The notes beneath the pieces are model-generated. The model saw only the letters and a list, made by a program, of their open reading frames with translations. It made no database searches and was not told where the DNA came from. Position numbers and translations under genes: made by a program. A stretch of 64,000 nucleotides of DNA from an uncultured bacterium (lineage in GTDB: Bacteria; Patescibacteriota; Minisyncoccia; Phycocordibacterales; UBA9973). Shown here one piece after another: positions 6,638 to 50,703 of the stretch. Numbering within the stretch: position 1 is the stretch's first letter; each line of letters begins with the position of its first letter. The stretch lies in NCBI GenBank assembly GCA_903894955.1, contig CAITSA010000001.1, positions 3,769 through 67,768 of the forward strand, written 5' to 3'.

Positions 6638-6658
6638 AATTTTATTATATATTAAAAA

Positions 6659-7579: not shown

Positions 7580-7583
7580 AAAT

Positions 7584-8585: not shown

Positions 8586-8611
8586 TTTAATTTTACCCGA
8601 ATGTAAATTTT

Positions 8612-9844
8612 TTATAATTTAAAATTATCTCGAATACTTTTAACTGCTTTTTCAATGTCTGTGGTATGACCAAAAGCGCTTAAACGCAAGTACCCTTCTC
8701 CAGACAGACCAAAACCAGATCCTGGTGTTCCAACAACATGGGTTTCATTTAAAAGTTTGTCGAAAAATTCCCAAGAGCTAAGACCTTTTGGATTTTTTAC
8801 CCAAATATAAGGAGCATTTTCTCCACCAAAAACTTTAAATCCAATTTTCAATAAATTTTTCTTTATTATTCTTGCATTGTTCATATAATAACCAACCATT
8901 TTTTTGCTTTCTCTTAGCCCAGCTTTTGACAAAACTGCTAGGGCGCCTGCCTGAGCAACATTGGATGCTCCATTAAACATCGTTCCTTGTCGTCTGTTCC
9001 ATAAATTATTAACTTCTCTCTTTTTTGTTTTTTCGATAACTAAATCCATCGGTACGACCGTCCAACCAAAACGAACACCGGTAAACCCTGCTGATTTTGA
9101 AAAACTATTTATCTCGATGGCACATTTTTTAGCTCCTTTTATCTCATAAATACTCTTCGGTAAAGATTTATTGGAGATATATTCGCAATAGGCTGCGTCG
9201 TAAATAATAACTGCTTTGTTTTTTATTGCATAATCAACAAAGGATTTTAACTGCTTTTTAGTAGCGACTGAACCAGTTGGATTATTTGGATTGCAAAGAT
9301 AAATTATATCCACCTTTTGTTTTGGCGGAAAAGGTACAAAATTATTTTTTTCGTTACATTCCATATACACTAAACCTTTATATTGACCATCAACAAACTC
9401 TCCTGTCCGGCCAGCAATAACAGTGGTGTCCACATATGCTGGGTATACAGGATCTGAAACAGCCACAATGTTATTTGAATCAAAAATTGATTGAATATTA
9501 GCTAAGTCCGTTTTAGCTCCATCATTAATAAAAATTTCCTGCATATTTAAACTAATATTCCTTGTCTTGTAAAAAGACATGAGCATTGTTAGGAGTTTTA
9601 TATTTGCTTCTTTTCCTTCAGCATCCTGATAACCTGTGTAGGTTTTAATATTGGCAAGTTTTTTTACTCCTTCAGATAATCCTTTGATAATAGTGGGAGA
9701 AAGAGGTTCTGTTGTATCACCTACTCCAAGTCGCATAACTTCTACTCTAGGATTCTTTTCTATAAAATCTCTAGTTCGTCTATCAATTTCACTAAATAAA
9801 TATCCACTTTTTAATTTATTAAAATTTTTATTTATAGTAGCCAT
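8612..9844 (-). CDS. dapL: LL-diaminopimelate aminotransferase-type class I aminotransferase
   Basis: N-terminal KLKSGYLFSEI; PLP-lysine context NSFSKSAGFTGVRFGW; 410 aa; lies between dapA and asd. Confidence 0.75.
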   Translation of the reverse strand: MATINKNFNKLKSGYLFSEIDRRTRDFIEKNPRVEVMRLGVGDTTEPLSPTIIKGLSEGVKKLANIKTYTGYQDAEGKEANIKLLTMLMSFYKTRNISLNMQEIFINDGAKTDLANIQSIFDSNNIVAVSDPVYPAYVDTTVIAGRTGEFVDGQYKGLVYMECNEKNNFVPFPPKQKVDIIYLCNPNNPTGSVATKKQLKSFVDYAIKNKAVIIYDAAYCEYISNKSLPKSIYEIKGAKKCAIEINSFSKSAGFTGVRFGWTVVPMDLVIEKTKKREVNNLWNRRQGTMFNGASNVAQAGALAVLSKAGLRESKKMVGYYMNNARIIKKNLLKIGFKVFGGENAPYIWVKNPKGLSSWEFFDKLLNETHVVGTPGSGFGLSGEGYLRLSAFGHTTDIEKAVKSIRDNFKL

Positions 9845-9859
9845 GAATCGTTATCAGAT

Positions 9860-10762
9860 TTAAATTAATTTTAAGTCTTTCAGAATTTTTTCTAGTAAAA
9901 TCCTATTTTTGTCTTCAATAAAAGTAAGGGGTAGTCTGAAACTTTCCTCAATCTTCCCCATCATAGCTAAAGCTGTTTTCACTGGAATTGGATTAGATTC
10001 AACAAAATTTATGTTCATTAAAGGCAAAAGGTCGTAGTGTAATTTTCTTGCCTCTTCTAAATTACCTTTAAGTGCTAAGTGAATCATTTTGGAAAATAAT
10101 TTAGGAGCTTCGTTGCAAACAACTGAAATACATCCTTGTCCACCTAGGGCAATAAGTGGCAAGGCCACAGCATCATCTCCAGAAAATACAATAAAATCTT
10201 TTGGACCATTTTTCCTTATTTCATTAATTATTTCCATCATCTGATTCAAGGAACCCGAAGCTTCTTTGACTGCTTTTACTTCCGGTACCTCTCTCGCAAT
10301 TCTTACAATAGTTTCTGGAGATACATTAGATCCAGTTCTCCCCGGAACATTATAAACAATAATGGGCATATCTACCATTTTGGCAATTTCTTTAAAGTGA
10401 AGAACTAAACCATTAGGAGTTGGTTTGTTGTAATAAGGAGTTACGTGAAGTAGGGCATCAGCTCCAGCCTTTTTTGCTAAGCGAGATAAATGAACTGCTT
10501 TTTTTGTATCATTACTACCGGCTCCGGCAATGACCGGAACTTTTTTAGCAACTGTTTTCACCACTGTTTTTATCACCAGACTATATTCTTCTTCATTTAA
10601 GGTAGTTGCTTCTCCAGTAGTCCCCACAACCACTATCGCATCTACCCCACCTTCTAATTGAAAAAGAACTAACTTTTCCAAAGCAGGCAAATCTAGGTCT
10701 CCATTTTTTTTAAAAGGAGTAACGATAGCTGGAATAGAACCAAAAAATTTTATGTTCTTCAT
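9860..10762 (-). CDS. dapA: 4-hydroxy-tetrahydrodipicolinate synthase
   Basis: VVGTTGE, YNVPGRTG, KEASG (Schiff-base Lys context); 300 aa. Confidence 0.9.
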   Translation of the reverse strand: MKNIKFFGSIPAIVTPFKKNGDLDLPALEKLVLFQLEGGVDAIVVVGTTGEATTLNEEEYSLVIKTVVKTVAKKVPVIAGAGSNDTKKAVHLSRLAKKAGADALLHVTPYYNKPTPNGLVLHFKEIAKMVDMPIIVYNVPGRTGSNVSPETIVRIAREVPEVKAVKEASGSLNQMMEIINEIRKNGPKDFIVFSGDDAVALPLIALGGQGCISVVCNEAPKLFSKMIHLALKGNLEEARKLHYDLLPLMNINFVESNPIPVKTALAMMGKIEESFRLPLTFIEDKNRILLEKILKDLKLI

Positions 10763-10778
10763 ATTTTATTTTGTTAAT

Positions 10779-11519
10779 TTATAAGATATTTTCAAAAGCA
10801 TAAATTCCTTTTTTACTTTTAATAAATTCTGCTGCAAACAATGCACCTTTAGCAAAACCAACTCTATTATATGCTTGGTGAGAAAGAGTAATGCCATCAG
10901 CATTACTATCAAAAATAACCTCGTGAAAACCAGGGTTTCTGCCCCCTCGAATTGAAGCAAGATGAAGTTCAGTAGGATCAATTTGTCTATTTAATTTTTC
11001 AGTTTGAATAGATTTTTTGGCTGGAAAATTTTCCAAAATCTTTCCTGCTATTTTCAAAGCAGTGCCGGAAGGACTGTCTAATTTACCTCCATGATGAATT
11101 TCAAAACCATAGACGTCATATTCTGGAAATTTAGCAAAAAGCTTAGAAGCAGAAGCTATCATTTTAAAAAATATATTGGCCCCCACTGAAAAATTAGCAC
11201 CATAAATTAATCCTATTTTATATTTCTTAACTATTTTTTTTACTTTCTCTATGTCAGAAGCCCATCCAGTCGTCCCGATAACTAAATTTTTACCAAGTTT
11301 GGCAATCTGTTCAATATTTTTTAAAACTATATCTTTGGAGGTGAAATCAATAGCAATGTCTGCTTTCTTGATCCCTTCTATATCTAACTTGTCATTAATA
11401 TTTTTAAAACTAATCGAAACAACCTCAAAGATTTCGGATTCATTACATAATGTATTAATTTCTTGGCCCATTTTCCCGTAACCAATCAAGGCAATTTTTA
11501 TTTTCTTTTTCATACTCAT
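10779..11519 (-). CDS. dapB: 4-hydroxy-tetrahydrodipicolinate reductase
   Basis: IGYGKMGQ and EIHHGGKLDSPSGTA motifs. Confidence 0.85.
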   Translation of the reverse strand: MSMKKKIKIALIGYGKMGQEINTLCNESEIFEVVSISFKNINDKLDIEGIKKADIAIDFTSKDIVLKNIEQIAKLGKNLVIGTTGWASDIEKVKKIVKKYKIGLIYGANFSVGANIFFKMIASASKLFAKFPEYDVYGFEIHHGGKLDSPSGTALKIAGKILENFPAKKSIQTEKLNRQIDPTELHLASIRGGRNPGFHEVIFDSNADGITLSHQAYNRVGFAKGALFAAEFIKSKKGIYAFENIL

Positions 11520-19076: not shown

Positions 19077-20174
19077 CTATCTATTCATTGGCATTATGAG
19101 ATAAGTAAAAGATGAATCAGAAACTGCAGATATAACTATCGGGCGAGAAGCTCCGGATAATTTTATAGAAACACTATCTGTCCCAATTGACTGAAAACAG
19201 TCTAAAAAATATTTATAATTGAAACCAAGTTCAATAATCTCTCCTTTAATGACTGCGTCTAAATATGTTTTATTTTCTCCAATGTCATTATTAGCAGAAG
19301 AAAGTTCAAAGATTTTTTCCTTGGGTGAAATTTTCAAATTAACTTGATTAAATTTATCTGAAAAAATATTAGAAAGTTTTAAAGCATTTAATAGATCTTG
19401 TTTTAAGACAACCACTTCAGTGGAAGAATCTTTTGGAATAATTTGCCTATAATCTGGGAAAACACCATCAATGATTCGTGAAGTTAAATATATATTATTA
19501 GAAGAAAAAGAAATTTGGTTCTTATTAAAACACACTTTTACCACACTCTTTAATTCTCCAAATATTTTTATTATTTCTCCTATATTTTTATAAGGGATAA
19601 GAATTCCTAAAATTTCATCGAGTCCTTTTATTTTAACCTTTTTCTCAGCTAGTCTAAAAGAATCCGTCGAGACAAAAACTAAATTATCATCATGGGTATA
19701 TATAAAAACACTGGAAATTTCAGATTTTATATCAGAAACAGAAGAACTATAGTAAACTGATTTTATACCATCAACTAATTTATTTGATTCTATTTCAAAA
19801 CTATTTCCATCAACTATTGGTATAGTTGGAAAATCTTCATAAGGTTGACTTTTAAATTTTATTTGACTTTTTTTTGTTTTAATTAATAAATTCCCATTTT
19901 GTTCTTCAAGTTGTATGTTTTCGTTTTGAGAAACATTAGAAAAAACAGCGTTTAGTATTGAACCAGAAATAGCCACAGTGCCTTCTTTTTCTATTTTGGC
20001 TGGAATTTCAATTTCAATACCAAGACTTAAATTAGTGGCTCTAAGTTTTAACAACCCATCAGAGGCAATAAGTAAAACAGAACTTAAAATAGGTAATGTT
20101 AGATTTTTACCAGTAATTCTCTCTACTTGAGAAACTGCACTTTTTATTTTTTCAATTGAACATTCTATCTTCAT
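19077..20174 (-). CDS. dnaN: DNA polymerase III beta sliding clamp
   Basis: 365 aa, three-domain length; ends ...FTYLIMPMNR; adjacent to dnaA. Confidence 0.9.
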   Translation of the reverse strand: MKIECSIEKIKSAVSQVERITGKNLTLPILSSVLLIASDGLLKLRATNLSLGIEIEIPAKIEKEGTVAISGSILNAVFSNVSQNENIQLEEQNGNLLIKTKKSQIKFKSQPYEDFPTIPIVDGNSFEIESNKLVDGIKSVYYSSSVSDIKSEISSVFIYTHDDNLVFVSTDSFRLAEKKVKIKGLDEILGILIPYKNIGEIIKIFGELKSVVKVCFNKNQISFSSNNIYLTSRIIDGVFPDYRQIIPKDSSTEVVVLKQDLLNALKLSNIFSDKFNQVNLKISPKEKIFELSSANNDIGENKTYLDAVIKGEIIELGFNYKYFLDCFQSIGTDSVSIKLSGASRPIVISAVSDSSFTYLIMPMNR

Positions 20175-20423
20175 ATATTTGTTTATATTTTATATATTTA
20201 ATTTATTAATAATACTAATGGTGTTAATAAGTGGATAAGTATTCTTATTGTTATTTTATATGGTTTTATTTTATATTCTATGTTTTTTATAAATCTAACA
20301 ACTTTTTCTATTTTTTATAAATTAATTTTTAAAACTTAAAACACTTTTCTTATTATTTTTTATGCACTATTTTTTATATTTTTTATTCTACTTTTCATTG
20401 TCTTATAAGTCACTTCTTAACAG
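20175..20423. other. candidate oriC part (very AT-rich dnaA-dnaN spacer, likely DNA-unwinding region)
   Basis: 249 nt almost devoid of G/C. One near-consensus DnaA box AGTGGATAA (20230-20238, complement TTATCCACT). Confidence 0.5.
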
Positions 20424-21764
20424 TTATTTAAACATAATTCTTATCTGCTCTAACTCTTGCATTAATTGTGAATCATTTTTTAAATCTGCTTTAATTTTCA
20501 CACACGAATGCATAACAGTGGTGTGATCTTTCCCACCTAATTTTTGGCCTATTAAAGGATAAGAAACACTAAAATCTTCTCGAAGTAGATACATTATAAT
20601 TTGTCTCGTTCTTACTATCTCTTTTTTTCTAGTCTTTTCATAAACAGAGGCTTCTTCTAATTTATAATATTCAGCTACAATTTTGACCACATCTTTGATG
20701 GCTATATTTTTCTTTGGTTTCATGTTGTTTTTTAGTAAGTTTTTAACTTCTAAAAGCGTCGGAGCCTTATTTTTCAAGCGATATTGGCAAACAATAAGAT
20801 TAAGACTTCCCTCAAGTTCACGTATATTCCCCTGCATTGAAGCTGCCACATATTCGATTAAATCTTCTTCTAAAACAACATTAAATTCACGAAGCCTTAC
20901 TTTTATAATTGCGAGACGAGACTCATATTCTGGTTCAGAAACATCCACAATCATTCCCGCAGCAAAACGAGACTTTAAACGATCTGCTAATTCTGGAATG
21001 TAATTAGGGTGTTTATCAGAAGAAAAAATAATTTGTTTATTATTTTCATAAAAAGTATTAAAGGTGTGAAAAAGTTCTTCTTGAATTTTTTCCATTTTAC
21101 CAATGAATTGGATGTCGTCTATAATTAAAAGATCGTATTTACGATATTTTTCTTTAAAAGAATTTGCTTTATTGCTCTGGAGGGAGTTTATAAAATCTGT
21201 TGCAAACTTCTCTAAAGTCATATAATGGACTTTTTTATTAGGATATTTATCTTTTATTGAATTTCCTATAGCTTGAATTAAGTGAGTTTTCCCGAGACCA
21301 GTTCCTCCATAAACAAAAAATGGATTATATTTAGTTCCTGGTGATTCTATGATGGCTTGAGCGGCTGCATACGCGAGTTCATTAAATGTCCCAACAATAA
21401 AAGAGTTGAAATGGTAACGCGGATTTAGGTTGTTCTCTGGATTTATGTATAAATCCCTTAAGGGGAGCTCTTTGGCGATGGTTTCGCTTGTTATAATTGT
21501 TTCTTGTTTAGGGTTTTCTATTTTGGTAATTACATATTCTACGGCCCGCATGTTTTCATAAGCTTCTGTGATGGTTTTAGTTATTAGTTTATGGTATTTA
21601 TTGATGAGCCAGTCACGAACAAACTCGTTGGGTACTCCTATATAGATGATTCCGGCCTCTTCTTTTAAAATAGAGGTATTTTTAAACCAAGTACTAAAAT
21701 TTGCTTTTGACATTCCGGACTCAATTTTTAGTAGGCAGTTCCCCCATAACTGTTTTGTATTCAT
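20424..21764 (-). CDS. dnaA: chromosomal replication initiator DnaA
   Basis: GGTGLGKTHL Walker A, LLIIDDIQF, C-terminal KDHTTVMHS DNA-binding signature. Confidence 0.95.
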   Translation of the reverse strand: MNTKQLWGNCLLKIESGMSKANFSTWFKNTSILKEEAGIIYIGVPNEFVRDWLINKYHKLITKTITEAYENMRAVEYVITKIENPKQETIITSETIAKELPLRDLYINPENNLNPRYHFNSFIVGTFNELAYAAAQAIIESPGTKYNPFFVYGGTGLGKTHLIQAIGNSIKDKYPNKKVHYMTLEKFATDFINSLQSNKANSFKEKYRKYDLLIIDDIQFIGKMEKIQEELFHTFNTFYENNKQIIFSSDKHPNYIPELADRLKSRFAAGMIVDVSEPEYESRLAIIKVRLREFNVVLEEDLIEYVAASMQGNIRELEGSLNLIVCQYRLKNKAPTLLEVKNLLKNNMKPKKNIAIKDVVKIVAEYYKLEEASVYEKTRKKEIVRTRQIIMYLLREDFSVSYPLIGQKLGGKDHTTVMHSCVKIKADLKNDSQLMQELEQIRIMFK

Positions 21765-27159: not shown

Positions 27160-28278
27160 TTAAATTATGGATATTGTTGTTCCTGTTTTTATGCAGGGGG
27201 CAAGTAGAGTTAAGTCGTCATTACTCATTCTAATACAACCGTTGGTTGTTCCTAAGGTGTCTTGTTCGTTTCCGTGAAAGCCGATGCCTCTATCGTTGCC
27301 AGAAGAATCTTTTGCGCCAATATTAACAAAAGCAGCACCCAAATTATAACCATTGTTCGAGATAACAGCATTTCCACTGTTCCCCAGCCTTATGTCCCCA
27401 CTTGTAGTAAAAGTTCCTTTTGGAGTTTTACTATCCCCACTCTTTGCTTGGCCAACTTCTGCTACTCCTTTATATCCAAGATTTACTGGAACAGAAACAC
27501 AACTTGATCTGGAACAAAAGCTGGCCTGTTTGGTAGCGGTATTTACTGTAACTTTACTTAATGATGAGCAACTGTTGTTGGCAAAATCAGTAACTCCCGA
27601 ACTAGGAGTTCCACTTAATTTATATCCAGTTCCCACAGAGGCTGTTGTCTGCTCTGTAGCAGCAAAATTTGCCTGGTCTGCAGTTACTGTTACTGTTACA
27701 CTTGTTAAATTTTTTAAACTACTATCAAGCAAATTAGGATTTATTGCGTTAAGAAGGGTCCAAGCACCTAGTGCCAAAAGGAGACCAAAAATTGCATTTC
27801 TAATTCTTTCCTTGCCTGCTTCTTTACTTGAAATCAATTCGCTCGTCATATATTCAATACCACCCACGACAATCATTATTACAGCCAAGACAGCGCAGAT
27901 ACCAATGAAGAGTTTTATCATCATATTTAAATATCCACTAAAAGCACTACTGTCACCTGTTGGGACATTACTCATTGTTCCACCGGCAGGATTGGGTAAT
28001 GGAGCTAAAAGATTATAATTTGAATTTGCTGGAGTTGTTGTTGGAGTTGATGGTGTGTATCCCCCCGTACATCCAGCTGGTGTATAAGCTCCAGTGGGGT
28101 CTACTCCTGTACATGTCACTGTTCCTGTTATTGGCGTTGTTGATGTACATCCATCTGGTGTGGGAGTGTTAGTTACTACATTGAAACCTGTACATGTTTC
28201 GGCCTTTACTTCTCTCATCGGGCCAAAAAACCCGATTGATACGATGAGTATTAAAATGTAAATTGAAATTTTTTTCAT
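27160..28278 (-). CDS. VirB2/TrbC-like pilin segment fused to a YkuD-type L,D-transpeptidase domain
   Basis: Signal peptide. Two-helix hydrophobic hairpin (MIKLFIGICAVLAVIMIVVGGIEY...AIFGLLLALGAWTLLNAI). C-terminal TPKGTF...GFHGNEQDTLGTTNGCIRMSNDDL (H..G..S/T.GC[IV]R motif). Confidence 0.6.
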   Translation of the reverse strand: MKKISIYILILIVSIGFFGPMREVKAETCTGFNVVTNTPTPDGCTSTTPITGTVTCTGVDPTGAYTPAGCTGGYTPSTPTTTPANSNYNLLAPLPNPAGGTMSNVPTGDSSAFSGYLNMMIKLFIGICAVLAVIMIVVGGIEYMTSELISSKEAGKERIRNAIFGLLLALGAWTLLNAINPNLLDSSLKNLTSVTVTVTADQANFAATEQTTASVGTGYKLSGTPSSGVTDFANNSCSSLSKVTVNTATKQASFCSRSSCVSVPVNLGYKGVAEVGQAKSGDSKTPKGTFTTSGDIRLGNSGNAVISNNGYNLGAAFVNIGAKDSSGNDRGIGFHGNEQDTLGTTNGCIRMSNDDLTLLAPCIKTGTTISII

Positions 28279-28283
28279 TTGAT

Positions 28284-29267
28284 TTAAAATTCTATATTAA
28301 TTTCTTTGGTGGCACTCTCGAAAATTTTCTCTGTATTATTAATTTCTAATCTTATATTAGATGTTCCAGAAGTTCCAGTCTGTACTTGGAGTGGCATAGT
28401 ATTTTTCATATAAATCGGAGGATTTACCGTTTCGTCATTAATAAACCAATCCCAGGTAAGGAACGAAATTCTGATGTCGCCCGGCGATATGAAATATGGG
28501 GCGGCTACCAAAATTTCACTGTTTACTATTTTATGGCCATCGTCAAGAGCTTGTTCCCAAAGTGTTCCGAGATTAGTATCATTTTTGTAAAATATAATTT
28601 TTGGTTTTACCGTTCCAATATCCATACTTGCTGTTGAAGAATATTTTTGATCAATAGTTGAAGCAGTTACTCCAATATTATTTGAATCTTCCAAATAATC
28701 ATTTACATAAGTAAAAGAATTCTTTCCATAGCCTGAACCATCTGGATTATTGGAAGAATCTCTCTGCCAACTATAAGTCATGTTTTTAGGGTCTACTAGA
28801 TTAGAGCCTGATTTTATTTCAGGGATAGCAACAACTTTTACCGTACTATCAGGTGAAGGCAACGCCTTTCCTTTATAAAACGGAGGAACATAAGAATCCA
28901 TTGCTTGATAGAGCAAGACCATCACATTAGGCCTTATTGTTATTCTGGTGTCTGTTGCTCCATCTGGGAGAGACACAGTAGCGACAACACTTGTTTCCTC
29001 TCCTGCATTTGGAGCATTAAGAGAAAAAGATTTTTTCCCAATTTCAGATGAAACGTTTTTACCATTTACAGACCAAGAGATTAAAACACTATCTAAGTCG
29101 TAATTATAACTTTTTAAGGTAATATCTACCCCTTCACCAGGGGCTGGGTTTTCTGGTGCTATGTTAACCGAAATTCCAATAGAGGGAACAGCCTTTACTT
29201 TAAAAGGTAAAAAAGTTCCGAATATTATAATTACTGTAATTAAAAATGGTAAAAATTTAAACCTCAT
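28284..29267 (-). CDS. secreted protein, unknown function
   Basis: Signal peptide MRFKFLPFLITVIIIFGTFLPFKVKA; beta-rich. Confidence 0.7.
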   Translation of the reverse strand: MRFKFLPFLITVIIIFGTFLPFKVKAVPSIGISVNIAPENPAPGEGVDITLKSYNYDLDSVLISWSVNGKNVSSEIGKKSFSLNAPNAGEETSVVATVSLPDGATDTRITIRPNVMVLLYQAMDSYVPPFYKGKALPSPDSTVKVVAIPEIKSGSNLVDPKNMTYSWQRDSSNNPDGSGYGKNSFTYVNDYLEDSNNIGVTASTIDQKYSSTASMDIGTVKPKIIFYKNDTNLGTLWEQALDDGHKIVNSEILVAAPYFISPGDIRISFLTWDWFINDETVNPPIYMKNTMPLQVQTGTSGTSNIRLEINNTEKIFESATKEINIEF

Positions 29268-29288
29268 ATTTTAATTGTATCATATCTA

Positions 29289-31163
29289 CTACTTTTCAGT
29301 CACATTTATTGTTTGCCCTGTTGCTGTGGGGGTTTCTTGCTCTTGTTTGGCTTTTTTGTTTAATAATATTTGTGAAGGATCGGAAGTAATGATCTGGTCC
29401 TCGGTATAAGAAGAGACTATTTTTATAGCAACATGTTTTAATCCTGCGAAAAAGATACCTTCCCCTAACCCAGATTCTAAAAGTAAATATTTCTCTTCAT
29501 CAGTGAGATTAAAAGTTTTTTGCAGGATATCAATTGTGGTTGGTGATTGTTTTAAAAGAAGCTGGATAGAGGAATTCGTAATGATTGGTACTCCATAAGG
29601 AGATTTCATGAAGTCGGCTGCGTCTTGGGTAATAGTAGAAAGACCCAAATAATATTTTCGTCCTCTTTTGGCAATAGAGTACAAGAATGAGGCTGTGTCT
29701 TCGGACTTCATCATCCACCAAGCCTCATCTACTACGAGTAAGCGTTTTTTTAAATTTTTGCGTATGGCATTCCAAATATAATGCATAATGATATACATGG
29801 CGACTGGTTTTAATTCGTCTTCCATGTCGCGCACAGAGAATACCACGAACTTTTTATTAATATCTACGTTCGACGGTCTGTTTAAAAAAGTTGCCCAAGA
29901 ACCTCTGGTGTATTTTGCCAATCTAGCAACAACTGAATCACTTCCATCCATTCCAGAGAGCACCATTTCAAGATCTGAAAGAAGAGGAGGTTCAATATTG
30001 AAAAAATCCGATTCCGGAGTTATGTCTTTTATGGCATAAGTTTCAGAGATAGCTCGGTCTACCATTGAATCTTCTTCTGGAGTGAGTCCACCCAACATCA
30101 ATCTGAAAAGACCTACTAAGTTAATGATATTTGAACGCAAGACATCTTCTGCAGTCTCATCTTCGCGAGGGATAGGTAAATCAAATGGGTTTAGATGGTG
30201 GTCTGAAGAAAGTGAAATATTAAAATATCGTCCACCTACTGCTTCAGCTAAAAATTCATATTCTCTTTCTGGGTCGATCACAATGACATCGGTATCAAAC
30301 ATGAGTGACCTTAGAATTTCTAATTTTGTTGCGTAAGATTTTCCAGAACCAGATTTAGCAAAGGTTACGGAGTTGTAATTTTCTAAGGAAAATCTATCAA
30401 AGATAACTAAGCTCGAGTTGTTTCTATTGATACCATAAAGTATTCCTTTATCAGAAGTAAGATTAGAAGAAATAAATGGGAAAACACTCGACAAGGGGTC
30501 AGAATTTAATTTTTGGTGAATATTTAATAAATCTGTTTCTATTGGAATGACGCTTTTGAAACCTTCTTCTTGTTGAAAAAGTGCTGGTTTTATATAGATA
30601 AGTTTTGATTCCAGCATTGATTTTATTTCATTTTCTATCTTGAAAAGTTCGAAATCGTTGTCTGCATAAATCGTGATATAAATACCAACATCAAACATCT
30701 TTTCTTGCGCTTGAATTAAGTTATTACGAAGTTCTTCAAGGTCTTGGTAAGCAGTGTCGAGCATTGGGTCTCGGACCATTCCTTTTGATTCTCGGACATT
30801 TATTTGGCTTTGTACTTCAGCAACTTTTTTCTGAAATTGTCGTAGCATTAAAGAAGTGTCTATTGGGTGAATGAAGATTGAAATATCAAAAATTTTATCC
30901 AAATTAATTATTGGAGAAAACCAATTATCCGTTAAAAATCTAGGATAAGATATTATAAAAAAAGTACGGGCAATTTTGTCACCTAGGTTTATAGATTTCG
31001 GGTCAATTTTTAAGGCTGATGGGGCAATGACATCTTGAAGTTCTAGGTTTGCCGACTCATAAATTTTTTCTGGTAAGACCGCCAAAACAGAAGCCCGAGG
31101 TCCCTCTCCTTCAGTTTCTTTTCCTTTTCCAAATAATTTTTTAATGTCTTCTAAAATACTCAT
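29289..31163 (-). CDS. VirB4/TraC-type T4SS ATPase, ATPase portion
   Basis: Walker A AKSGSGKSYATK, Walker B LLVVDEAWWMM, ...GLSTITQD... Confidence 0.8.
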   Translation of the reverse strand: MSILEDIKKLFGKGKETEGEGPRASVLAVLPEKIYESANLELQDVIAPSALKIDPKSINLGDKIARTFFIISYPRFLTDNWFSPIINLDKIFDISIFIHPIDTSLMLRQFQKKVAEVQSQINVRESKGMVRDPMLDTAYQDLEELRNNLIQAQEKMFDVGIYITIYADNDFELFKIENEIKSMLESKLIYIKPALFQQEEGFKSVIPIETDLLNIHQKLNSDPLSSVFPFISSNLTSDKGILYGINRNNSSLVIFDRFSLENYNSVTFAKSGSGKSYATKLEILRSLMFDTDVIVIDPEREYEFLAEAVGGRYFNISLSSDHHLNPFDLPIPREDETAEDVLRSNIINLVGLFRLMLGGLTPEEDSMVDRAISETYAIKDITPESDFFNIEPPLLSDLEMVLSGMDGSDSVVARLAKYTRGSWATFLNRPSNVDINKKFVVFSVRDMEDELKPVAMYIIMHYIWNAIRKNLKKRLLVVDEAWWMMKSEDTASFLYSIAKRGRKYYLGLSTITQDAADFMKSPYGVPIITNSSIQLLLKQSPTTIDILQKTFNLTDEEKYLLLESGLGEGIFFAGLKHVAIKIVSSYTEDQIITSDPSQILLNKKAKQEQETPTATGQTINVTEK

Positions 31164-31191
31164 ATAATTGTTGTGATGTTAAGCTCGTAGT

Positions 31192-31830
31192 TTACTCTAA
31201 TCTAACTTTTCCTTCTACTTCTCCTGGGTTGAAAACTTTATAAAATACTTCTACCACTTCTTCGGTGCCGAGCTGAGCTGAATTTATACCACAACGGGAG
31301 AGCCCTTGTTGAATAACTGATACCCTTTCTTCTAATTGGGACCTTTTTTCTTCAAAAGCTACCTGTTGAGCTGCCTTTATTTCCGCTTTATTTTTTGAAG
31401 AAAATATTTTGTCGATGATTCCAGAGTCTGATTTTAAGGTGGTATGAGTATAAGGGACTACTATAAAAAAGTTTTTTGTCATAATGGCAACAGAGTCAGT
31501 AAAATTTTTAATAAAGTCTATATATTCTCTGGTTTGTAATTTTAAAAGAGGTTCATTTTGCACTTTGATTCTATTTTCCAAAAGTAAAAGATAAGGTCGA
31601 ATATCAAGCCTTCTTGATTGGATTGATATTTGGATAGAAAAATCTAAAGTATTTAGAAAATTTTGGAATTGCATTATTGTTGCTTGTTGCTCGTCGGTTG
31701 ATTTTAAAGATAAATTTACTGAGTTGGCAAGTACAATTGCTCGGAGCTCGTCGTTTTTTAGCACGACTATTCCATCGCGGACTTCCTTAATAGGTACGAA
31801 TTCTTGAGTTGCTTTTGCATTTAAGGCCAT
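31192..31830 (-). CDS. VirB4 N-terminal-domain-like protein (separate ORF)
   Basis: FVPIKEVRDGIVVLKNDELRAIVLANSVNLSLKSTDEQQATIMQFQNFLNTLDFSIQISIQSRRLDI resembles the N-terminal domain of Gram-positive VirB4 homologues. 28-nt gap to the ATPase ORF. Confidence 0.55.
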   Translation of the reverse strand: MALNAKATQEFVPIKEVRDGIVVLKNDELRAIVLANSVNLSLKSTDEQQATIMQFQNFLNTLDFSIQISIQSRRLDIRPYLLLLENRIKVQNEPLLKLQTREYIDFIKNFTDSVAIMTKNFFIVVPYTHTTLKSDSGIIDKIFSSKNKAEIKAAQQVAFEEKRSQLEERVSVIQQGLSRCGINSAQLGTEEVVEVFYKVFNPGEVEGKVRLE

Positions 31831-31838
31831 ATTATTTA

Positions 31839-32285
31839 TTACTTATTATTCTCTTTTTGTTTACTTAAATCTAATATATCCAAACTCCAAGCTAAATCTC
31901 GTAACTTACTCCCGCTTAACTGGTCGCCTTCTTTTATCATTTGAACTTTATTTGTATTATTATTTTTTTCCCCGCCCGCATCGCCTTGCGAAGCATGGCG
32001 GGCAGGTATACGTTTTTTCCAGATGTAAAGTTTATTTTGGGTAAAATATTTAAAACTTGATTCTAGCATATTCACAAAAGGTTTATTATTTGGTTTATAA
32101 AAAGTAAGGGTTAGAGAAAATCCAGCCATGATTAAAATCGGGATTGCTCCCATCACGAGACCTAATAATTTATACAATACAAAACATAGGCCTGCTCCTC
32201 CTGCCAAGTAAATAAATTCCCTAAAAGTAAAAGGACCAAATATTTTATCTTCAATATCTAAAAATTGTGGAACTTTGAATTGCAT
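31839..32285 (-). CDS. PrgI/VirB3-like small membrane protein
   Basis: MQFKVPQFLDIEDKIFGPFTFREFIYLAGGAG followed by two TM helices; directly upstream of the VirB4 ORFs. Confidence 0.6.
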   Translation of the reverse strand: MQFKVPQFLDIEDKIFGPFTFREFIYLAGGAGLCFVLYKLLGLVMGAIPILIMAGFSLTLTFYKPNNKPFVNMLESSFKYFTQNKLYIWKKRIPARHASQGDAGGEKNNNTNKVQMIKEGDQLSGSKLRDLAWSLDILDLSKQKENNK

Positions 32286-45580: not shown

Positions 45581-48496
45581 TTATTTTCTTAGACTTTCTT
45601 CAAATATTTCTAATTTTCCATCTGCCACTAGTTTTTGCAAAGCGCGGCATATGTAATGTCCACTATTCTCAGTTCCTACTCCAAGGAACCCTGCTTTAGG
45701 TTTAAGTTCGCTGAAATTTTTAAGTAAATTTAAATAATCTGAGAAACGTTTCGTTGTGGCATCAATATTTGTTTCGTTTGTGTATTCTAGAATCTTGGTT
45801 GCTTTTAAGGCACCCAACCTACTCCAGGTTGCTGGTTCGTTTCCAAATAAATGATTCATATCTCCAAGGCTGGCATCATAAGCTTTTATTAATTCCTTCC
45901 CAGGTAAATTGAAAGGATTATCTGCAAATACCGGATATTTTTGTAAAATAACATTTTCATCTGTTGTAAGTTCAGGAAAATATGGTTTACCATATGCATC
46001 ATGAAATTGACCAGCTTCATTAAGATAATATCTTTCTCCATTAAATATAGATGTTTGATTTCCATAATAATTACCCCCAGTATAGGCTTCACTTCCAGTA
46101 TATGCTACATCATTTCCCGTATATGCTTTAGTTCCAATCTCATGGGCTGTGCCTACATGTACAACTTGAGAACCTAGATGAGGTGTTTTTATGTTATTGG
46201 CAAGATTGGGCTTTTCTGTTCCCGCAACACCCTGTGTTGCTTTTAATTTTTCAGCTTCATTAAATTTATCATCTATTTCTTTTTCTATTTGATCTGCAGT
46301 CTTTATGCTTGGCGCTTTAACTTTTTCTGGTTCAGTAGGTGGAGTAGTATGATGTTCTTGTACAACTTGTTCTGGTTGGTGGTGAGCTGTGCTTATTTTT
46401 TCATATTGGTTATTTGGGTTTTTCCCAAATTCATACCCTTCTTCTTTATCATATGTTTCAATTATTTTCCCATCAAGTGTTTTTTCTATAACTACTGGGT
46501 GTCCATTTTCCACTTTAAGTTCAAAAGCTATTTTATTTGCTTCTGTTATGCGAACTTCTTGCCCATTTTCCCCAATATAACCCATCTTATCAGCTATTTT
46601 ATGAGCTTCTTGTCCTGCGAATTTATGCAAAGCCGCTGTATCACTTGTGTCTCCCTTAAATCCTAATTGTTCGGCTAATTTTGGATTAGCATCTATTTGT
46701 TTTATGAATGTATGCTCCACTCCTTGACCTTGATATACTACTGCGTTTGCATTTGGAGGAGTTAGAGTTTCTGGAGTAGCTACATTAGCAGATTCAGGTG
46801 AAGTAGTAGGAGGCACATTTGAGAAATTTTTCGGAGCACCAGTAGCATCAGGTTGAGCAACTCCACTTTTTGGCATATTTCCATGAACTCCCCACCAGCC
46901 TAAATGTTCTCCAACATACCTCAAAGCATAACCAGCAGTTGCTAGTCCAGCTCCTAGTAATGCACCATTTCGTGTTTGTTTGTAAATAAATTCTCTTTGT
47001 GCTTCAGAAGTTTTTTCAGCTAGATTGCTACCTTTTCTAGCTAATAGAAGATTAATTCTTGTTTTTAATTCCACATTTGTTTTTTCAGACATTGTTTCTC
47101 TTAAAACCAATGCTTCATTTAAATTATTTACTAAATTATATTCATTCACAAGAGACGACTTAGAATCTCCAAAATTTACTTGTCCTTTTTCTATTTTACC
47201 TAAAGTGTGCTCTATTCTTACAGACAACATACTAAGTTTTTCTGCGTGTTCTTCTTTTCGTTCGTCTTTATTAGTAGTATTTTTTATTTCTTGAATTAAT
47301 TTTTCTAAACGTTTATTTAAATGCGTTGCATCCGTAGTTACAATTTTTTCTTTACTAGTATCTTTTTTCCCATGCCTAGCTTCTTTTTGTCTTTCTTCTA
47401 GGGTTTCTTTCCCGCGAAAACGACCTCTGATTCCTCCTATTACTCCACCTACAGCAACAGTAGCTACTCCTGTCATAATATTTACCCCTGAAGCAAAAGC
47501 TAAACTTTTTGATAACCATCTTGCACCATAACCTCCAGCAAATATAGCTTTATTTATAGCTCCTTTCCCTCCAGCCATATTCAAAACATCTTTTCCTTGG
47601 GCAAGCCAGTTGTCACTTTTTTCATTTTTTGATAAATGGGCCAGTTCTGCTTCAAATTCAGGATGTGTGTTTATTAGCTGGTCCATTTTAATTAGGTTAT
47701 CCAACTGTAAGAATTCTATTATTGCAGACCCTTTTCCTTTTTCATTTTCCTTTATTTTTAAAAGTTCATTTCTTGCTTTTTCATATTCAGCTTTAGTTTT
47801 TTCGTATTCTTTTCTATGCTTAACCCCTATTTCCATACTTCCTAATTTTAATTTAGCTTTCTCTTGACTCCATTCATAGGGTATTTTTCGAAAATTATTT
47901 GCCGCAGTATTGAAATTTATAATAATTATTTTTTCTATCTCGCTAGAAGCTTTATCTGGATTAATAAAAGCAATTTCTAGTTTATTATTATTTATAGAAA
48001 CCTCTCTATCCTTTGTCATCTCTGTAAGTTGTGCCAAATTTTCAACTATTAGTTTTTTCCCTTCTTCTGTATTTTTGATTGTTTCGAAAGCTTTTATTTC
48101 AAAGTTTTTTGTTTCTGATTCTTTATTTAGGGATGTTCTTATTTTTGCTATTGCTCCTTTTTCTTTTATGTCTTCAGAATATTGTGTTTGTGCGTCTGAT
48201 TTTACAAGGTCAACAATTCTGCGCTTGAGATCTCGAATTATTTTTAGTTTTTGTGCATTATTTAAAGTTTCAAATTCTTTTGTAAGAAAGGGACCCAAAT
48301 CCATTTCAGTAATAAAATCTGTTACTTCTTTTTGTGCACGTTCTTTATTATATTGCTGTTCTGGCTCTTCTTCATAGGTCTCTTTTGTTTCTTCTTCAAC
48401 TTCTTCTGGGATAACATCTATAATATTAGGATCTTTGGGATTTATTTCTCCTCTTATTGCTCTTAGGAGACGTTCTGTTTCATTCATAGTATTCAT
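45581..48496 (-). CDS. 971-aa orphan protein with two Gly-rich hydrophobic hairpins
   Basis: Acidic/coiled N-terminal third. GVNIMTGVATVAVGGVIGGI and GALLGAGLATAGYAL segments. No recognisable catalytic motif. Confidence 0.7.
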   Translation of the reverse strand: MNTMNETERLLRAIRGEINPKDPNIIDVIPEEVEEETKETYEEEPEQQYNKERAQKEVTDFITEMDLGPFLTKEFETLNNAQKLKIIRDLKRRIVDLVKSDAQTQYSEDIKEKGAIAKIRTSLNKESETKNFEIKAFETIKNTEEGKKLIVENLAQLTEMTKDREVSINNNKLEIAFINPDKASSEIEKIIIINFNTAANNFRKIPYEWSQEKAKLKLGSMEIGVKHRKEYEKTKAEYEKARNELLKIKENEKGKGSAIIEFLQLDNLIKMDQLINTHPEFEAELAHLSKNEKSDNWLAQGKDVLNMAGGKGAINKAIFAGGYGARWLSKSLAFASGVNIMTGVATVAVGGVIGGIRGRFRGKETLEERQKEARHGKKDTSKEKIVTTDATHLNKRLEKLIQEIKNTTNKDERKEEHAEKLSMLSVRIEHTLGKIEKGQVNFGDSKSSLVNEYNLVNNLNEALVLRETMSEKTNVELKTRINLLLARKGSNLAEKTSEAQREFIYKQTRNGALLGAGLATAGYALRYVGEHLGWWGVHGNMPKSGVAQPDATGAPKNFSNVPPTTSPESANVATPETLTPPNANAVVYQGQGVEHTFIKQIDANPKLAEQLGFKGDTSDTAALHKFAGQEAHKIADKMGYIGENGQEVRITEANKIAFELKVENGHPVVIEKTLDGKIIETYDKEEGYEFGKNPNNQYEKISTAHHQPEQVVQEHHTTPPTEPEKVKAPSIKTADQIEKEIDDKFNEAEKLKATQGVAGTEKPNLANNIKTPHLGSQVVHVGTAHEIGTKAYTGNDVAYTGSEAYTGGNYYGNQTSIFNGERYYLNEAGQFHDAYGKPYFPELTTDENVILQKYPVFADNPFNLPGKELIKAYDASLGDMNHLFGNEPATWSRLGALKATKILEYTNETNIDATTKRFSDYLNLLKNFSELKPKAGFLGVGTENSGHYICRALQKLVADGKLEIFEESLRK

Positions 48497-48585
48497 ATTA
48501 TACCCAATAGTAAGATTTTAACAATTTTTTAGGTGTGTGGTTTATCCACAGGTGGTTCTTGTCCGATTGACTTTTGACCATTTTT

Positions 48586-48711
48586 GCGATATCTTGGAGG
48601 GGTACCCAGCAGTAGAGAAATCTCACTTCTGGGCATAGTCCTGAAGAGAGGTACAGAGCAAATTGACTGAAGGCTAGAGAAGACAGTAACCATCGTGAGA
48701 ACCTTTATCGC
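48586..48711 (+). promoter_or_regulatory. candidate c-di-AMP (ydaO/yuaA-class) riboswitch
   Basis: P1 GCGATA/TATCGC. GGGGTACCCAGC (cf. GGGGGACCCA); internal pseudo-repeat GAGGTACAGAGC; GACAGTAACCATCGTGAG (cf. GUCAGCUAACCUCGUAAG). Lies upstream of a LysM/M23 cell-wall hydrolase, a typical ydaO context. Confidence 0.55.
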
Positions 48712-48785
48712 CAGTTGGCGAATGCAGCACAATACAGGTCGTCCTGTGATTCTACCTTTATAATAAAAGGCTAGAAAAGGAAATC

Positions 48786-49865
48786 TTGCGATATTTAGTT
48801 TGTTTTATAAAACGTTCAACTAAAACAGTTAGCAAAATATTTAGATCTACTTTAGCCTCTTCTTTATTGCTTGGGACTCTTTTTATGTCTGCCAGAGTAG
48901 CTCAAGCAGATTTCCTTTCTTCTATCTTTGGTGGTGGCCAAGCTTATGCGCTTCAAGTTAGTGATTCTAATCAAGTTACAGATGGTAAAAATAATGATGA
49001 TTCAGTAACTATTACCGATGATAGTGGTACTGCCCTTGTTCCAGCAACTGGTCTTTCGGGCGGGCAAGATGTCTCTGCTTCTTCAGGAGACACAAGTGTT
49101 TATGTAGTTAGGCCGGGAGATAATATTGCCACTATCGCTAAAATGTTTGATGTTTCGGTAGATACTATTCTTTGGGCTAATGACATGAAAAAGGGAGATA
49201 AACTTACGACAGGCGATGTCCTTTTGATTTTACCTATTTCTGGGCTTGAACATACAGTTACTAAAGGTCAAACCTTACAGAGTATTGCCAAGCTTTATAA
49301 AGTGGACGTAAATGACATTATTCAAAACAATGATGTTACTGAGGATACCAAACTAGCCGTTGGTGATACGCTTATTGTTCCGAATGCCTCAAAATCTGAA
49401 GAAAGTGGTATTCCCGTCAAGGACACAAAGGCAAGCACCGTAAAAGATAATCAATATTATCAAAAGCATCCTATCAAGAATCTTGCTGGGTATTATGTAA
49501 ATCCTGTACCAGGCTATAGAAAAAGCCAAGGTATTCATGACAATAATGCGGTAGATCTCGCTATCCCCAGAGGAACTTCTGTTCACGCGGCTGCTTCTGG
49601 TACTGTTACTCTTGCTAGACTTGGATACAATGGAGGGTTCGGAGGATTAGTAATTATTTCTCACCCAAATGGAACATCAACTCTTTATGCTCATTTATCC
49701 AAGTTGTCTACCTATACCGGAGAAAGTGTTTCTCAAGGTGAAGTAATTGCATCTTCTGGAGGTGTCCCTGGGACTCCTTATGCCGGACATTCTACTGGCG
49801 CACACCTACACTTTGAAGTTCATGGAGCAAGGAATCCAGGGGCAGATGGATCTTGGGCAAATTAA
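48786..49865 (+). CDS. secreted LysM-LysM-M23 peptidoglycan endopeptidase (TTG start)
   Basis: Signal peptide ...LFMSARVAQA. Two LysM repeats (YVVRPGDNIATIAKMF; HTVTKGQTLQSIAKLY). M23 motifs GIHDNNAVDLA...HLHFEV. Confidence 0.85.
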   Translation: MRYLVCFIKRSTKTVSKIFRSTLASSLLLGTLFMSARVAQADFLSSIFGGGQAYALQVSDSNQVTDGKNNDDSVTITDDSGTALVPATGLSGGQDVSASSGDTSVYVVRPGDNIATIAKMFDVSVDTILWANDMKKGDKLTTGDVLLILPISGLEHTVTKGQTLQSIAKLYKVDVNDIIQNNDVTEDTKLAVGDTLIVPNASKSEESGIPVKDTKASTVKDNQYYQKHPIKNLAGYYVNPVPGYRKSQGIHDNNAVDLAIPRGTSVHAAASGTVTLARLGYNGGFGGLVIISHPNGTSTLYAHLSKLSTYTGESVSQGEVIASSGGVPGTPYAGHSTGAHLHFEVHGARNPGADGSWAN

Positions 49866-49977: not shown

Positions 49978-50703
49978 TTAAATTCCAGCGAGATGAATTG
50001 CTCCAAATAAAACAACCACTCCTAATATAGTAGCTACTGTAGTCCACATAGTGGGATGATTGTGGTGGCTTTCTGGTAGTAAATCAGATGCTCCTATGTA
50101 CAAGAAAAATCCAGTAAATAAAGCAAGAATTATCCCTAAGGTTGATTCTGATACTGAAAAAAATAAAGTAGAAGTTATTCCCAAGACTGGAGCAATGGCG
50201 TCAACTAACAGCCAGCTAAAAGCTTGTTTTTTTGTACCAGAATTTTTTAAGATCATATTAACTGTATTTATTCCATCAGAAAAATCATGAACTAATACAG
50301 CAACAGCTACGATAGCACCAACAGCGCTTGATACTTGGAAAGCTAAACCGATAGCAGCCCCATCTAGAAAACTATGCGCAGATAAACTTCCAGCTCCAAG
50401 CAATCCCCTTTTATTTGGATTACACCCCTCATCATTATGGTCACAGTGTGAATGAAAGAAAAAGAGTCTATCTAAAATCATATAAATTACGAAACCAAGA
50501 GCGGTAATGGAGGTAATCAAACTAAGATCATAACTTCCTCCTCCTAGTTCTAATGCTTCAGGCAATAAATCAAAAAATGCTACACCAATAACTGCTCCAG
50601 CCGAGAATCCTAAAATTAAATGTAGTTTATCTTTGAAACGCAAAGCGAACATTCCACCCAAGAATGTGGAAACTAATGTTGCAATAGCTATGAATATAAT
50701 CAT
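49978..50703 (-). CDS. ZIP-family divalent metal transporter
   Basis: HDFSDGINTV, LLPESHHNH; about 8 TM; 241 aa. Confidence 0.8.
   Translation of the reverse strand: MIIFIAIATLVSTFLGGMFALRFKDKLHLILGFSAGAVIGVAFFDLLPEALELGGGSYDLSLITSITALGFVIYMILDRLFFFHSHCDHNDEGCNPNKRGLLGAGSLSAHSFLDGAAIGLAFQVSSAVGAIVAVAVLVHDFSDGINTVNMILKNSGTKKQAFSWLLVDAIAPVLGITSTLFFSVSESTLGIILALFTGFFLYIGASDLLPESHHNHPTMWTTVATILGVVVLFGAIHLAGI

Follow-up and report, generated by a model that had tools for sequence, protein, structure and literature searches.

We describe here the leader of the mRNA of a LysM-M23 peptidoglycan hydrolase, which is encoded in a 64-kb stretch of DNA from an uncultured member of the Patescibacteria (contig CAITSA010000001.1; the whole stretch of 64,000 nucleotides is termed the window). 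The leader probably folds over the bases preceding an AUA codon and most likely limits the initiation of translation in this way. It is about 200 bases long and conserved in more than 100 uncultivated Patescibacteria. As judged from comparative sequence analysis, it is a structured cis-acting RNA for which Rfam 15 holds no matching family, and a literature search, incomplete in its coverage, gave no description of it. An earlier interpretation from the letters of the DNA alone (the sequence-only reading) had placed a riboswitch for cyclic di-AMP (c-di-AMP) of the ydaO class at this site; its proposal of a structured regulatory RNA in front of the LysM-M23 gene appears right in outline.

Conservation of the leader at the nucleotide level was first suspected because over-extended N-termini of database proteins (GRPVILPL.., SRYLVCFIKP) are conserved between proteins which are merely 60% identical. 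The comparison rests on about 90 unique relatives of the leader, and alignments of 7 leaders, 89 leaders, and 85 unique cores were used. DNA of the relatives was obtained by three routes. Look-ups of exact proteins gave loci L081-L090 and L201-L207. A genome scan by protein alignment, in which the matches listed were mostly distant M23 proteins, contributed the useful loci L001, L002, and L012. Finally, a metagenome scan for CATCGTRAGAA, followed after 15-45 nucleotides (nt) by GGTCGTCCTGT, gave 110 loci; the words of this pattern were chosen as the two blocks that are invariant in the first seven leaders.

The features on which the argument depends are the following.

48567-48595, + strand: promoter with the -35 box TTGACT (48567-72), a 17-nt spacer, and the -10 box TATCTT (48590-95), located by consensus scan.

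48633-48815, + strand: leader core, as covered by the covariance model R1 (170 positions, 31 base pairs).

48659-48666, + strand: 5' strand of helix S2, CAAAUUGA, pairing with 48795-48802.

48692-48700, + strand: 5' strand of helix S1a, AUCGUGAGA, pairing with UCUUGCGAU at 48784-92.

48702-48706, + strand: 5' strand of helix S1b, CCUUU, pairing with AAAGG at 48776-80.

48723-48748, + strand: hairpin H3, formed by UGCAG (48723-27) and CUGUG (48744-48), with the invariant GGUCGUC (48737-43) at the end of the loop.

48755-48770, + strand: hairpin H4, CCUUU-AUAAUA-AAAGG, of variable length in the relatives.

48776-80 and 48784-92, + strand: 3' strands of S1, AAAGG and UCUUGCGAU, which take in a TTG at 48786-88 and seven of the nine bases of the downstream copy of a repeated 9-mer.

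48795-48802, + strand: 3' strand of S2, UUAGUUUG, ending 4 nt before the AUA.

48807-48809, + strand: invariant AUA within TTTTATAAAAC, the probable non-canonical start codon.

48807-49865, + strand: hydrolase gene with two LysM domains and Peptidase_M23, read from the AUA and including the stop codon.

R1 scores 171 bits at 48633-48815, its sole match in the window. Full-length matches directly upstream of hydrolase homologues were found in L001 (159 bits; Candidatus Nomurabacteria), L002 (109 bits), and L012 (56 bits), and there was no match in 40 other loci carrying more distant M23 genes. The hydrolase gene follows the element directly and on the same strand in 110/110 metagenome loci with enough downstream DNA, the proteins being 40-79% identical. 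Each locus has one copy of the element, and R1 and nhmmer detect none elsewhere in the window. In Pfam, the hydrolase of the window matches Peptidase_M23 (3e-23) and LysM (3e-20); it has thousands of homologues, of which the named ones belong to Patescibacteria/Paceibacterota. The 4227 families of Rfam 15 were searched as well. At gathering thresholds, the whole window gave four tRNAs and nothing else, and scans of 48450-48900 and 20 relatives under permissive settings (E<=10, lax filters) gave tRNAs and noise only.

The long-range helix is the best supported part of the fold. In the proposed structure, 87.8% of the cells are paired in the MAFFT alignment of 85 unique leaders, compared with 34-51% in six slid registers, and the covariation score is 0.150 compared with 0.053-0.076. 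S1a is paired in 97% and S1b in 90.6% of the cells. S1 encloses H3 and H4 and is found by RNAalifold (S1a on its own) as well as in all seven single-sequence minimum free energy (MFE) folds. For S2, 84.5% of the cells are paired and three pairs are changed on both sides, while shifted registers reach 33-59%. The pair G48697-U48787, which contains the middle base of the TTG, is G-C in 50, G-U in 24, and A-U in 11 leaders, with 0 mismatches. On the leader tree, G is replaced by A at 48697 in about 10 independent events, always opposite U (Fisher p = 2e-5), and the 3' strand of S1a varies only where a transition keeps the wobble pair. Two relatives that were collected independently of the search pattern agree with this. 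In L002, a U.G pair of the helix has become C-G, and in the divergent L012, S1a is rebuilt as ACUGAGAG/CUCUUGGU (8/9 pairs, two double changes) and S1b as CAUUA/UAGUG (5/5 pairs). The local hairpins are maintained, too; those of variable length keep to fixed sites, and their arms covary. H3 is 93% paired, with two of its pairs varying between G-U (70) and A-U (13) and between U-A (44) and U-G (29); L087 carries a 40-nt insertion in its loop. H4 forms at least 4 bp in 61/62 unique versions, at lengths of 19-35 nt. In the window, the comparative fold lies within 0.6 kcal/mol of the MFE, and the stretch 48575-48800 folds better than its shuffles (z = -2.87). The 3' strands of S1 and S2 occupy positions -31 to -5 relative to the AUA, and the masked stretch is U-rich.

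AUA at 48807-09 is most likely the start codon of the hydrolase and is presumably used as such in vivo, because it is invariant, because stop codons lie upstream, because of the pattern of indels, and because it is colinear with the ATG of homologues. ATA is present in 89/89 aligned leaders; the divergent L012 has ATT, with TAA 15 nt upstream. In the hydrolase frame (340-397 codons), an in-frame stop is located 3-57 nt upstream of the ATA in most leaders, and in over half of the leaders, neither ATG nor GTG nor TTG occurs between this stop and the hydrophobic core of the signal peptide. Indels of 1 nt occur within 20 nt upstream of the ATA, and on the immediate downstream side there is a single indel, of 12 nt, which keeps the frame. 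Homologues without the long leader start ATG AGA AAT TTA ACC AAA ATA TTC.., which is codon-colinear with ATA AAA CCT AAA TTT AAA ATA TTA... Starts at AUA, AUC, and AUU are rare; in vivo, they yield about 1-2% of the AUG level in E. coli, and the initiation factor IF3 discriminates against non-canonical starts (PMC5499595). Editing of the AUA from A to I was also considered and was dismissed for want of a tRNA-Arg-like UACG loop.

The missing canonical start codon is likely the reason why gene calls in this family are inconsistent. The database call for the gene of the window (P0001, 326 amino acids (aa)) starts at ATG 48885, and the signal peptide is lost. Calls starting at an internal NTG with loss of the signal peptide are P0001, P0003, P0004, and P0010, and calls running upstream so that the leader is translated are P0007, P0008, P0012, P0021, P0022, and P0024. 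Altogether, the inconsistent automatic calls concern 48786-48885 in the window and the database proteins P0001, P0003-P0024, and P0122. The annotation of the hydrolase family can thus be corrected where genes were called too late (signal peptide lost) or too early (leader translated).

The leader stands out from the rest of the genome. A Shine-Dalgarno-like motif precedes 5/42 open reading frames (ORFs) of the window, which equals the background rate, so there is no Shine-Dalgarno signal. ATG is the first codon in 34/42 ORFs. In many genes of the window, a TATAAT box precedes the ATG at a distance of 5-10 nt, for example gggtataatATG at 48497-48505 upstream of a minus-strand gene for 971 aa. 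As these boxes are so close to the ATG, most mRNAs seem to lack a leader or to carry a very short one. A structured leader of about 200 nt ending at AUA is an outlier because neither Shine-Dalgarno sequences nor long leaders are the rule in this genome. For the same reason, the AAAGGA of the leader is not taken as a Shine-Dalgarno sequence, which is consistent with L012, where the helix is kept without AAAGGA. Sequestration of a Shine-Dalgarno sequence was dropped as a mechanism on these two grounds.

We propose the following course of events. Transcription would start at the conserved promoter (-10 box at 48590-95), with a predicted transcript start near 48602, and proceed into the hydrolase gene. 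In the transcript, 48659-66 and 48692-706 would pair with the approximately 30 nt before the start codon (48776-802). The ribosome landing zone upstream of the weak AUA would be held in a duplex, and access of the 30S subunit would be limited. In a host that seems to rely on unstructured, A/U-rich initiation regions, the helix would repress initiation rather than help it, and the weak AUA would lower the output further. Translation of the potentially lethal hydrolase would be kept low and would depend on a factor which opens or stabilizes the fold. Such an effector may act on the invariant unpaired nucleotides. A small molecule is a tentative first choice for it, below the level that we would call likely; a protein or an RNase is doubtful, as is constitutive action with no effector, and an effector of another kind is rather unlikely. 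Alternative pairings of the H3 loop could underlie a switch. Its GUCGU can pair with GCGAU at 48788-92 (98% canonical), which excludes S1a and costs about 10 kcal/mol in the window, or with UGACU at 48663-67 (96% canonical), which excludes S2.

Several points weigh against this interpretation. The invariance of the CATCGTRAGAA and GGTCGTCCTGT blocks is partly built in because the scan pattern fixed both, and for the same reason the one-sided character of most variation in S1a is partly an artifact; only about 10 family members were collected independently of the pattern. While 0/500 shuffles reach the observed pairing and covariation values, the shuffle statistics overstate the significance because the leader sequences share ancestry. 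Since the helix leaves 4 nt free before the AUA, its role could be to place the ribosome and not to block it. The open form of a switch consists of candidate pairings only. In this window, the hydrolase frame is open from the TTG at 48786 onward, and this codon may be a local start, though not that of the family. Finally, the fold of the 5' domain (48634-91) was not settled by eye, by mutual information between all column pairs, or by a helix scan.

A second type of leader in the family sheds light on the origin of the masking strand. The features concerned are these.

48634-48691, + strand: 5' domain, UAGUCCUGAAGAGAGGUA .. CAAAUUGACUGAA .. GACAGUAACC, which is common to the short leaders of L086, L201, L206, and L207.

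48695-97, + strand: GUG, the relic start codon.

L086 2440-2533, L201 approximately 850-950, L206 approximately 1400-1503, and L207 approximately 60-140: short leaders.

The four short leaders are about 75 nt long, have the same promoter and 5' domain (AAAUGACUGAAAUCGGAGACGC), and are closed by GUACC/GGUAC just before a normal ATG. Their start region AUC AUG AGA ACU UUA aligns with the 5' strand of S1 in the window, AUC GUG AGA ACC UUU. The long leader looks like a short leader with about 115 nt inserted after codon 4, to judge from this alignment, and what was once the start region would now pair with the 3' portion of the insert. Among hydrolases that are 77-79% identical to that of the window, the leader is long in some and short in others (for example, L089 has the long form and L207, at 77%, the short one), so the module of about 115 nt seems to be readily gained or lost. 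In front of other genes, nhmmer finds the 5' domain neither in the window nor in the approximately 1 Mb of collected loci. Two candidate folds for this domain were rejected. Hairpins H1 and H2 with a pseudoknot GAUGAC x GUCGUC have weak and inconsistent support (58-78% at variable positions), and a local hairpin ACAGG-UCGU-CCUGU forms in the window and in L089 and not in most relatives.

The relic start codon suggests other explanations in which the conserved stretch is translated. Ribosomes might start at GUG 48695, melt S1, and free the AUA region for initiation or re-initiation. This upstream ORF (uORF) has 22 codons in the window, from GUG 48695 to UAA 48761. The homology of the S1 5' strand to the real start region of the short-leader relatives speaks for it, as does the presence of GUG in 69/81 leaders and, in 12/81, an ORF end within 15 nt of the AUA. 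However, the codon is replaced in 12/81 leaders by GUA, from which translation would not start, and each of these leaders has the compensating U; L012 has no start codon there at all. The length (6-54 codons), the stop position, and the frame are scattered, and the peptide is not conserved beyond VRTF. The GUA with its compensating U and the scattered ORF ends argue that selection acts on the helix and not on the uORF, which makes unlocking by a uORF improbable; a conserved leader peptide or uORF as the selected feature was ruled out on the same grounds of length, stop, frame, and GUA cases. That the stretch codes for an N-terminal extension of the hydrolase (GRPVILPL.., SRYLVCFIKP) is hardly credible. 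Seven database proteins do have such extensions, apparently conserved, and in 5/81 leaders, one open frame connects the GUG to the hydrolase. In the window, however, the GRPVILPL frame ends at TAA 48761; most leaders have the in-frame stops 3-57 nt upstream of the ATA; 1-nt indels and hairpins of variable length break the frame; and the substitutions track base-pairing, not codon positions. Skipping of the approximately 115 nt after the relic start, whether the ribosome passes over them (translational bypassing, known from T4 gene 60) or they are removed from the RNA, would make the protein begin at the GUG. The joined parts read MRTF-KILRS, which is close to the short-type MRTLTKIFRS, both ends meet through S1/S2, and the long leaders do resemble short ones with an insert after codon 4. 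Against this stand again the GUA in 12/81 leaders and the absence of a start codon in L012. Moreover, take-off and landing codons match at codon 4 in 43/90 cases, where 51 are expected by permutation, and no stop codon follows. For RNA removal, Rfam shows no intron or ribozyme match (E<=10), and we know of no self-splicing intron as short as this segment. The probability of skipping is close to nil.

Conservation at the level of the DNA is very improbable as well. The stretch would then hold operators, be it for DnaA or for a different repressor, or else an internal promoter would lie at TATAAA 48805-10, which resembles the -10 boxes just before many genes of this genome. A conserved DnaA box does lie upstream, and GTTTTATAAAAC is a 12-bp palindrome. 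Compensatory changes about 90 nt apart and hairpins which vary in length and yet stay self-complementary are signatures of RNA, however, and no canonical start codon follows the TATAAA at a leaderless distance. A role of the DnaA box is compatible with the masking helix and no substitute for it.

The ydaO class deserves a closer look, as the words on which the sequence-only reading relied are all present where it placed them. The window contains exactly two copies of TTGCGATAT, located at 48584-48592 and 48786-48794 (direct reading and pattern search), TATCGC lies at 48706-48711, and the blocks GGGGTACCCAGC, GAGGTACAGAGC, and GACAGTAACCATCGTGAG are found. From these it had derived a P1 helix GCGATA/TATCGC, whose 5' strand is duplicated at a TTG start codon, and a translational switch by strand competition. 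We also take the short 3' block of the leader, GACAGUAACCAUCGUGAG, to resemble the conserved 3' block of ydaO (..ACAGCUAACCUCGUAAG..). In addition, ydaO riboswitches control cell-wall hydrolases (PMC5575661; see also PMC9960051). The interpretation of the words fails, however, on comparison with the relatives. RF00379 has no match at gathering score in the window, nor at E<=10 in 48450-48900 or in 20 independent relatives; the model thus fails in 21 members of the family, in the very test that had been suggested along with the claim. At the family level, the ydaO model is refuted by these and the following comparative data, and for the window we regard it as extremely improbable.

Two optional hairpins account for much of the proposed aptamer.

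48605-48633, + strand: optional 5' hairpin CCCAG..CUGGG, with GGGGTACCCAGC on its 5' side.

48707-48722, + strand: optional hairpin AUCGCC-AGUU-GGCGAA, whose 5' arm includes TATCGC (48706-11).

The 5' hairpin is present in 5/89 leaders (the window, L108, L122, L140, and L190) as a local stem-loop with covarying arms. With it, the GGGGTACCCAGC half of the supposed pseudo-repeat drops out, and no conserved internal repeat is left in the core. The hairpin at 48707-22 is found in 19 unique leaders, again with covarying arms (UCGCC/GGCGA, UCCGC/GCGGG, CCGUCC/GGACGG), and most relatives lack it. TATCGC, read as the 3' strand of P1, is actually an arm of this self-contained hairpin. The P1 5' strand (48586-91) is located in the spacer and -10 box of the family-conserved promoter and is therefore probably not transcribed. 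A conserved closing helix P1 does not exist. The upstream TTGCGATAT (48584-92) covers the last bases of the spacer and the first ones of the -10 box, and the relatives have unrelated spacer sequence there. In L089, the closest relative with DNA (hydrolase 79% identical to that of the window), GCGATA of the upstream copy is replaced by GAGATA; the two 9-mer copies read TTGAGATAT (upstream) and CTCGCGATAT (downstream) there, so the duplication is not conserved. It is also near chance, as 11/100 dinucleotide-shuffled versions of the window contain at least two copies of the 9-mer. The TTG at 48786, called the start codon by the sequence-only reading, is a helix position which reads TCG, TTA, TCT, or TCA in most relatives; in L105, L111, L123, L135, L138, and L189, a 'TTG' is followed by CGA-TAA. 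Pairing of the downstream 9-mer was foreseen correctly insofar as the overlapping segment 48784-48792 does pair, with the CATCGTGAG part of the flagged GACAGTAACCATCGTGAG, and not with TATCGC. Forcing TATCGC to pair with the downstream copy costs 8.9 kcal/mol relative to the MFE, and with the upstream copy 14.4 kcal/mol, which speaks against strand competition. Compared with shuffled sequence, the proposed aptamer at 48584-48715 has no advantage in folding (z = -0.35). No diadenylate cyclase (DisA_N) is found among about 40 proteins of the window, which is weak evidence as it covers 64 kb of the genome only.

A nearly identical, GC-rich mini-hairpin of the type CGCCA-NN-UGGCG recurs in the family. 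The window and L089 carry it in the gap that separates S1b from H3, and L085, L106, and L121 have it inside H4; L111 and L148 are cited for it as well. It may be a small mobile or recurrently arising stem-loop.

In comparison with known systems, the leader shares some traits with ydaO riboswitches, namely its location, as the 5' leader of a gene for a cell-wall hydrolase, and a multi-helix RNA with highly conserved unpaired nucleotides. The ydaO aptamer has internal pseudo-two-fold symmetry; its two halves are related, and there are two ligand pockets (PMC5575661). The leader described here has neither such a repeat nor P1; instead, a long-range helix connects a relic start region to the bases before the AUA. 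Closer in context are the lysM-TM7, lysM-Actino, lysM-Prevotella, and M23 motifs, which are orphan candidate cis-regulatory RNAs upstream of lysM and M23-peptidase genes (Weinberg et al. 2017, PMC5737381). The lysM-TM7 motif comes from TM7, a lineage of the Patescibacteria, and these motifs were suspected of a link to c-di-AMP from their gene context, but did not bind it in vitro (PMC5737381). This calls for caution on c-di-AMP in the case of our leader, too. Like them, the leader is always directly upstream of a LysM-M23 gene, but it is longer (about 170-200 nt) and ends at AUA. Except for tRNA, no Rfam 15 family matches the leaders at E<=10, where we assume that the motifs are contained in Rfam 15.

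It is possible, but doubtful, that the leader forms a new riboswitch class of the Patescibacteria. The GGUCGUC loop, GACAGUAACC, and GAAGAGA would then build a pocket for an envelope or growth signal, whose binding would gate the weak AUA by opening or locking the long-range helix. The signal could be c-di-AMP recognized by a non-ydaO fold, a muropeptide, or a metal.

The infC mRNA uses a conserved non-canonical AUU/AUC start for autoregulation of IF3. It resembles our case in that a near-cognate AUH start is conserved across species, with discrimination by IF3 and low, condition-dependent translation (PMC5499595). The differences are the secreted hydrolase, the large structured leader, and a use of AUA that we infer. 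Translational riboswitches, RNA thermometers, and masking of the ROSE/MS2 type have in common with the leader that an upstream segment pairs with the initiation region of its own mRNA. Here, however, there is no Shine-Dalgarno sequence to mask, the start codon is outside the helix, and the masking strand appears to come from the ancestral start region. The invariant AUA start and the recruitment of this strand would be unusual features for an orphan structured cis-regulatory leader.

Much of bacterial diversity belongs to the Patescibacteria (candidate phyla radiation). Most of them are uncultivated, and their gene regulation is almost unexplored; a review on them names riboswitches only as a possible future tool. 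By sequence comparison, the leader is among the most conserved non-coding elements in these reduced genomes. The enzyme that it would guard is a secreted peptidoglycan hydrolase, dangerous to the cell and possibly relevant to an epibiotic life on host bacteria. The leader provides a defined RNA for ligand screening and for the study of initiation at a near-cognate codon without a Shine-Dalgarno sequence. Together with a DnaA box, the structured leader and the invariant AUA make up three apparent layers of control.

The DnaA box lies upstream of the promoter.

48542-48550, + strand: DnaA-box consensus TTATCCACA.

In 84 unique upstream regions, the box is exact in 49 and has at most one mismatch in 75; among control coding regions, the count is 2/101. 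It is placed 14-33 nt upstream of the -35 box (window and L081-L200). Such conservation points to a coupling between DnaA and the transcription of either the hydrolase or its divergent neighbor. In the window, the box sits within a small palindrome, TGTGG-TTTAT-CCACA. The promoter itself has the form TTGACT-17-TAnnnT in all aligned leaders; in the 89 leaders, TTGAC.T is nearly invariant, as is the TA at the -10 box, and the spacer sequence varies freely.

The divergent neighbor (45581-48496, - strand) encodes 971 aa without a Pfam match. Large domain-less proteins are encoded in the same position in L081 (855 aa), L083 (644 aa), L087 (689 aa), and L089 (697 aa). On the other side, convergent genes for metal homeostasis regularly follow the hydrolase. 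In the window, this is a ZIP transporter (49978-50703, - strand); ZIP also follows in L089, L205, and L207, a Fur-family regulator and ZIP in L086 (3649-4565), and a Fur-family regulator and an ABC-3-type transporter in L201 (2159-3643). M23 peptidases are zinc enzymes, and since metal genes adjoin, a link of the hydrolase locus to zinc is conceivable.

Three further gene clusters were noted in the window.

19077-21764: dnaA-dnaN, probably the origin region.

27160-32285: cluster resembling a type IV secretion or conjugation system, with a TraG P-loop protein, PrgI, and a type IV secretion pilin fused to a YkuD L,D-transpeptidase domain.

5825-11519: diaminopimelate/lysine block with dapA, dapB, dapF, aspartate kinase, and an aminotransferase.

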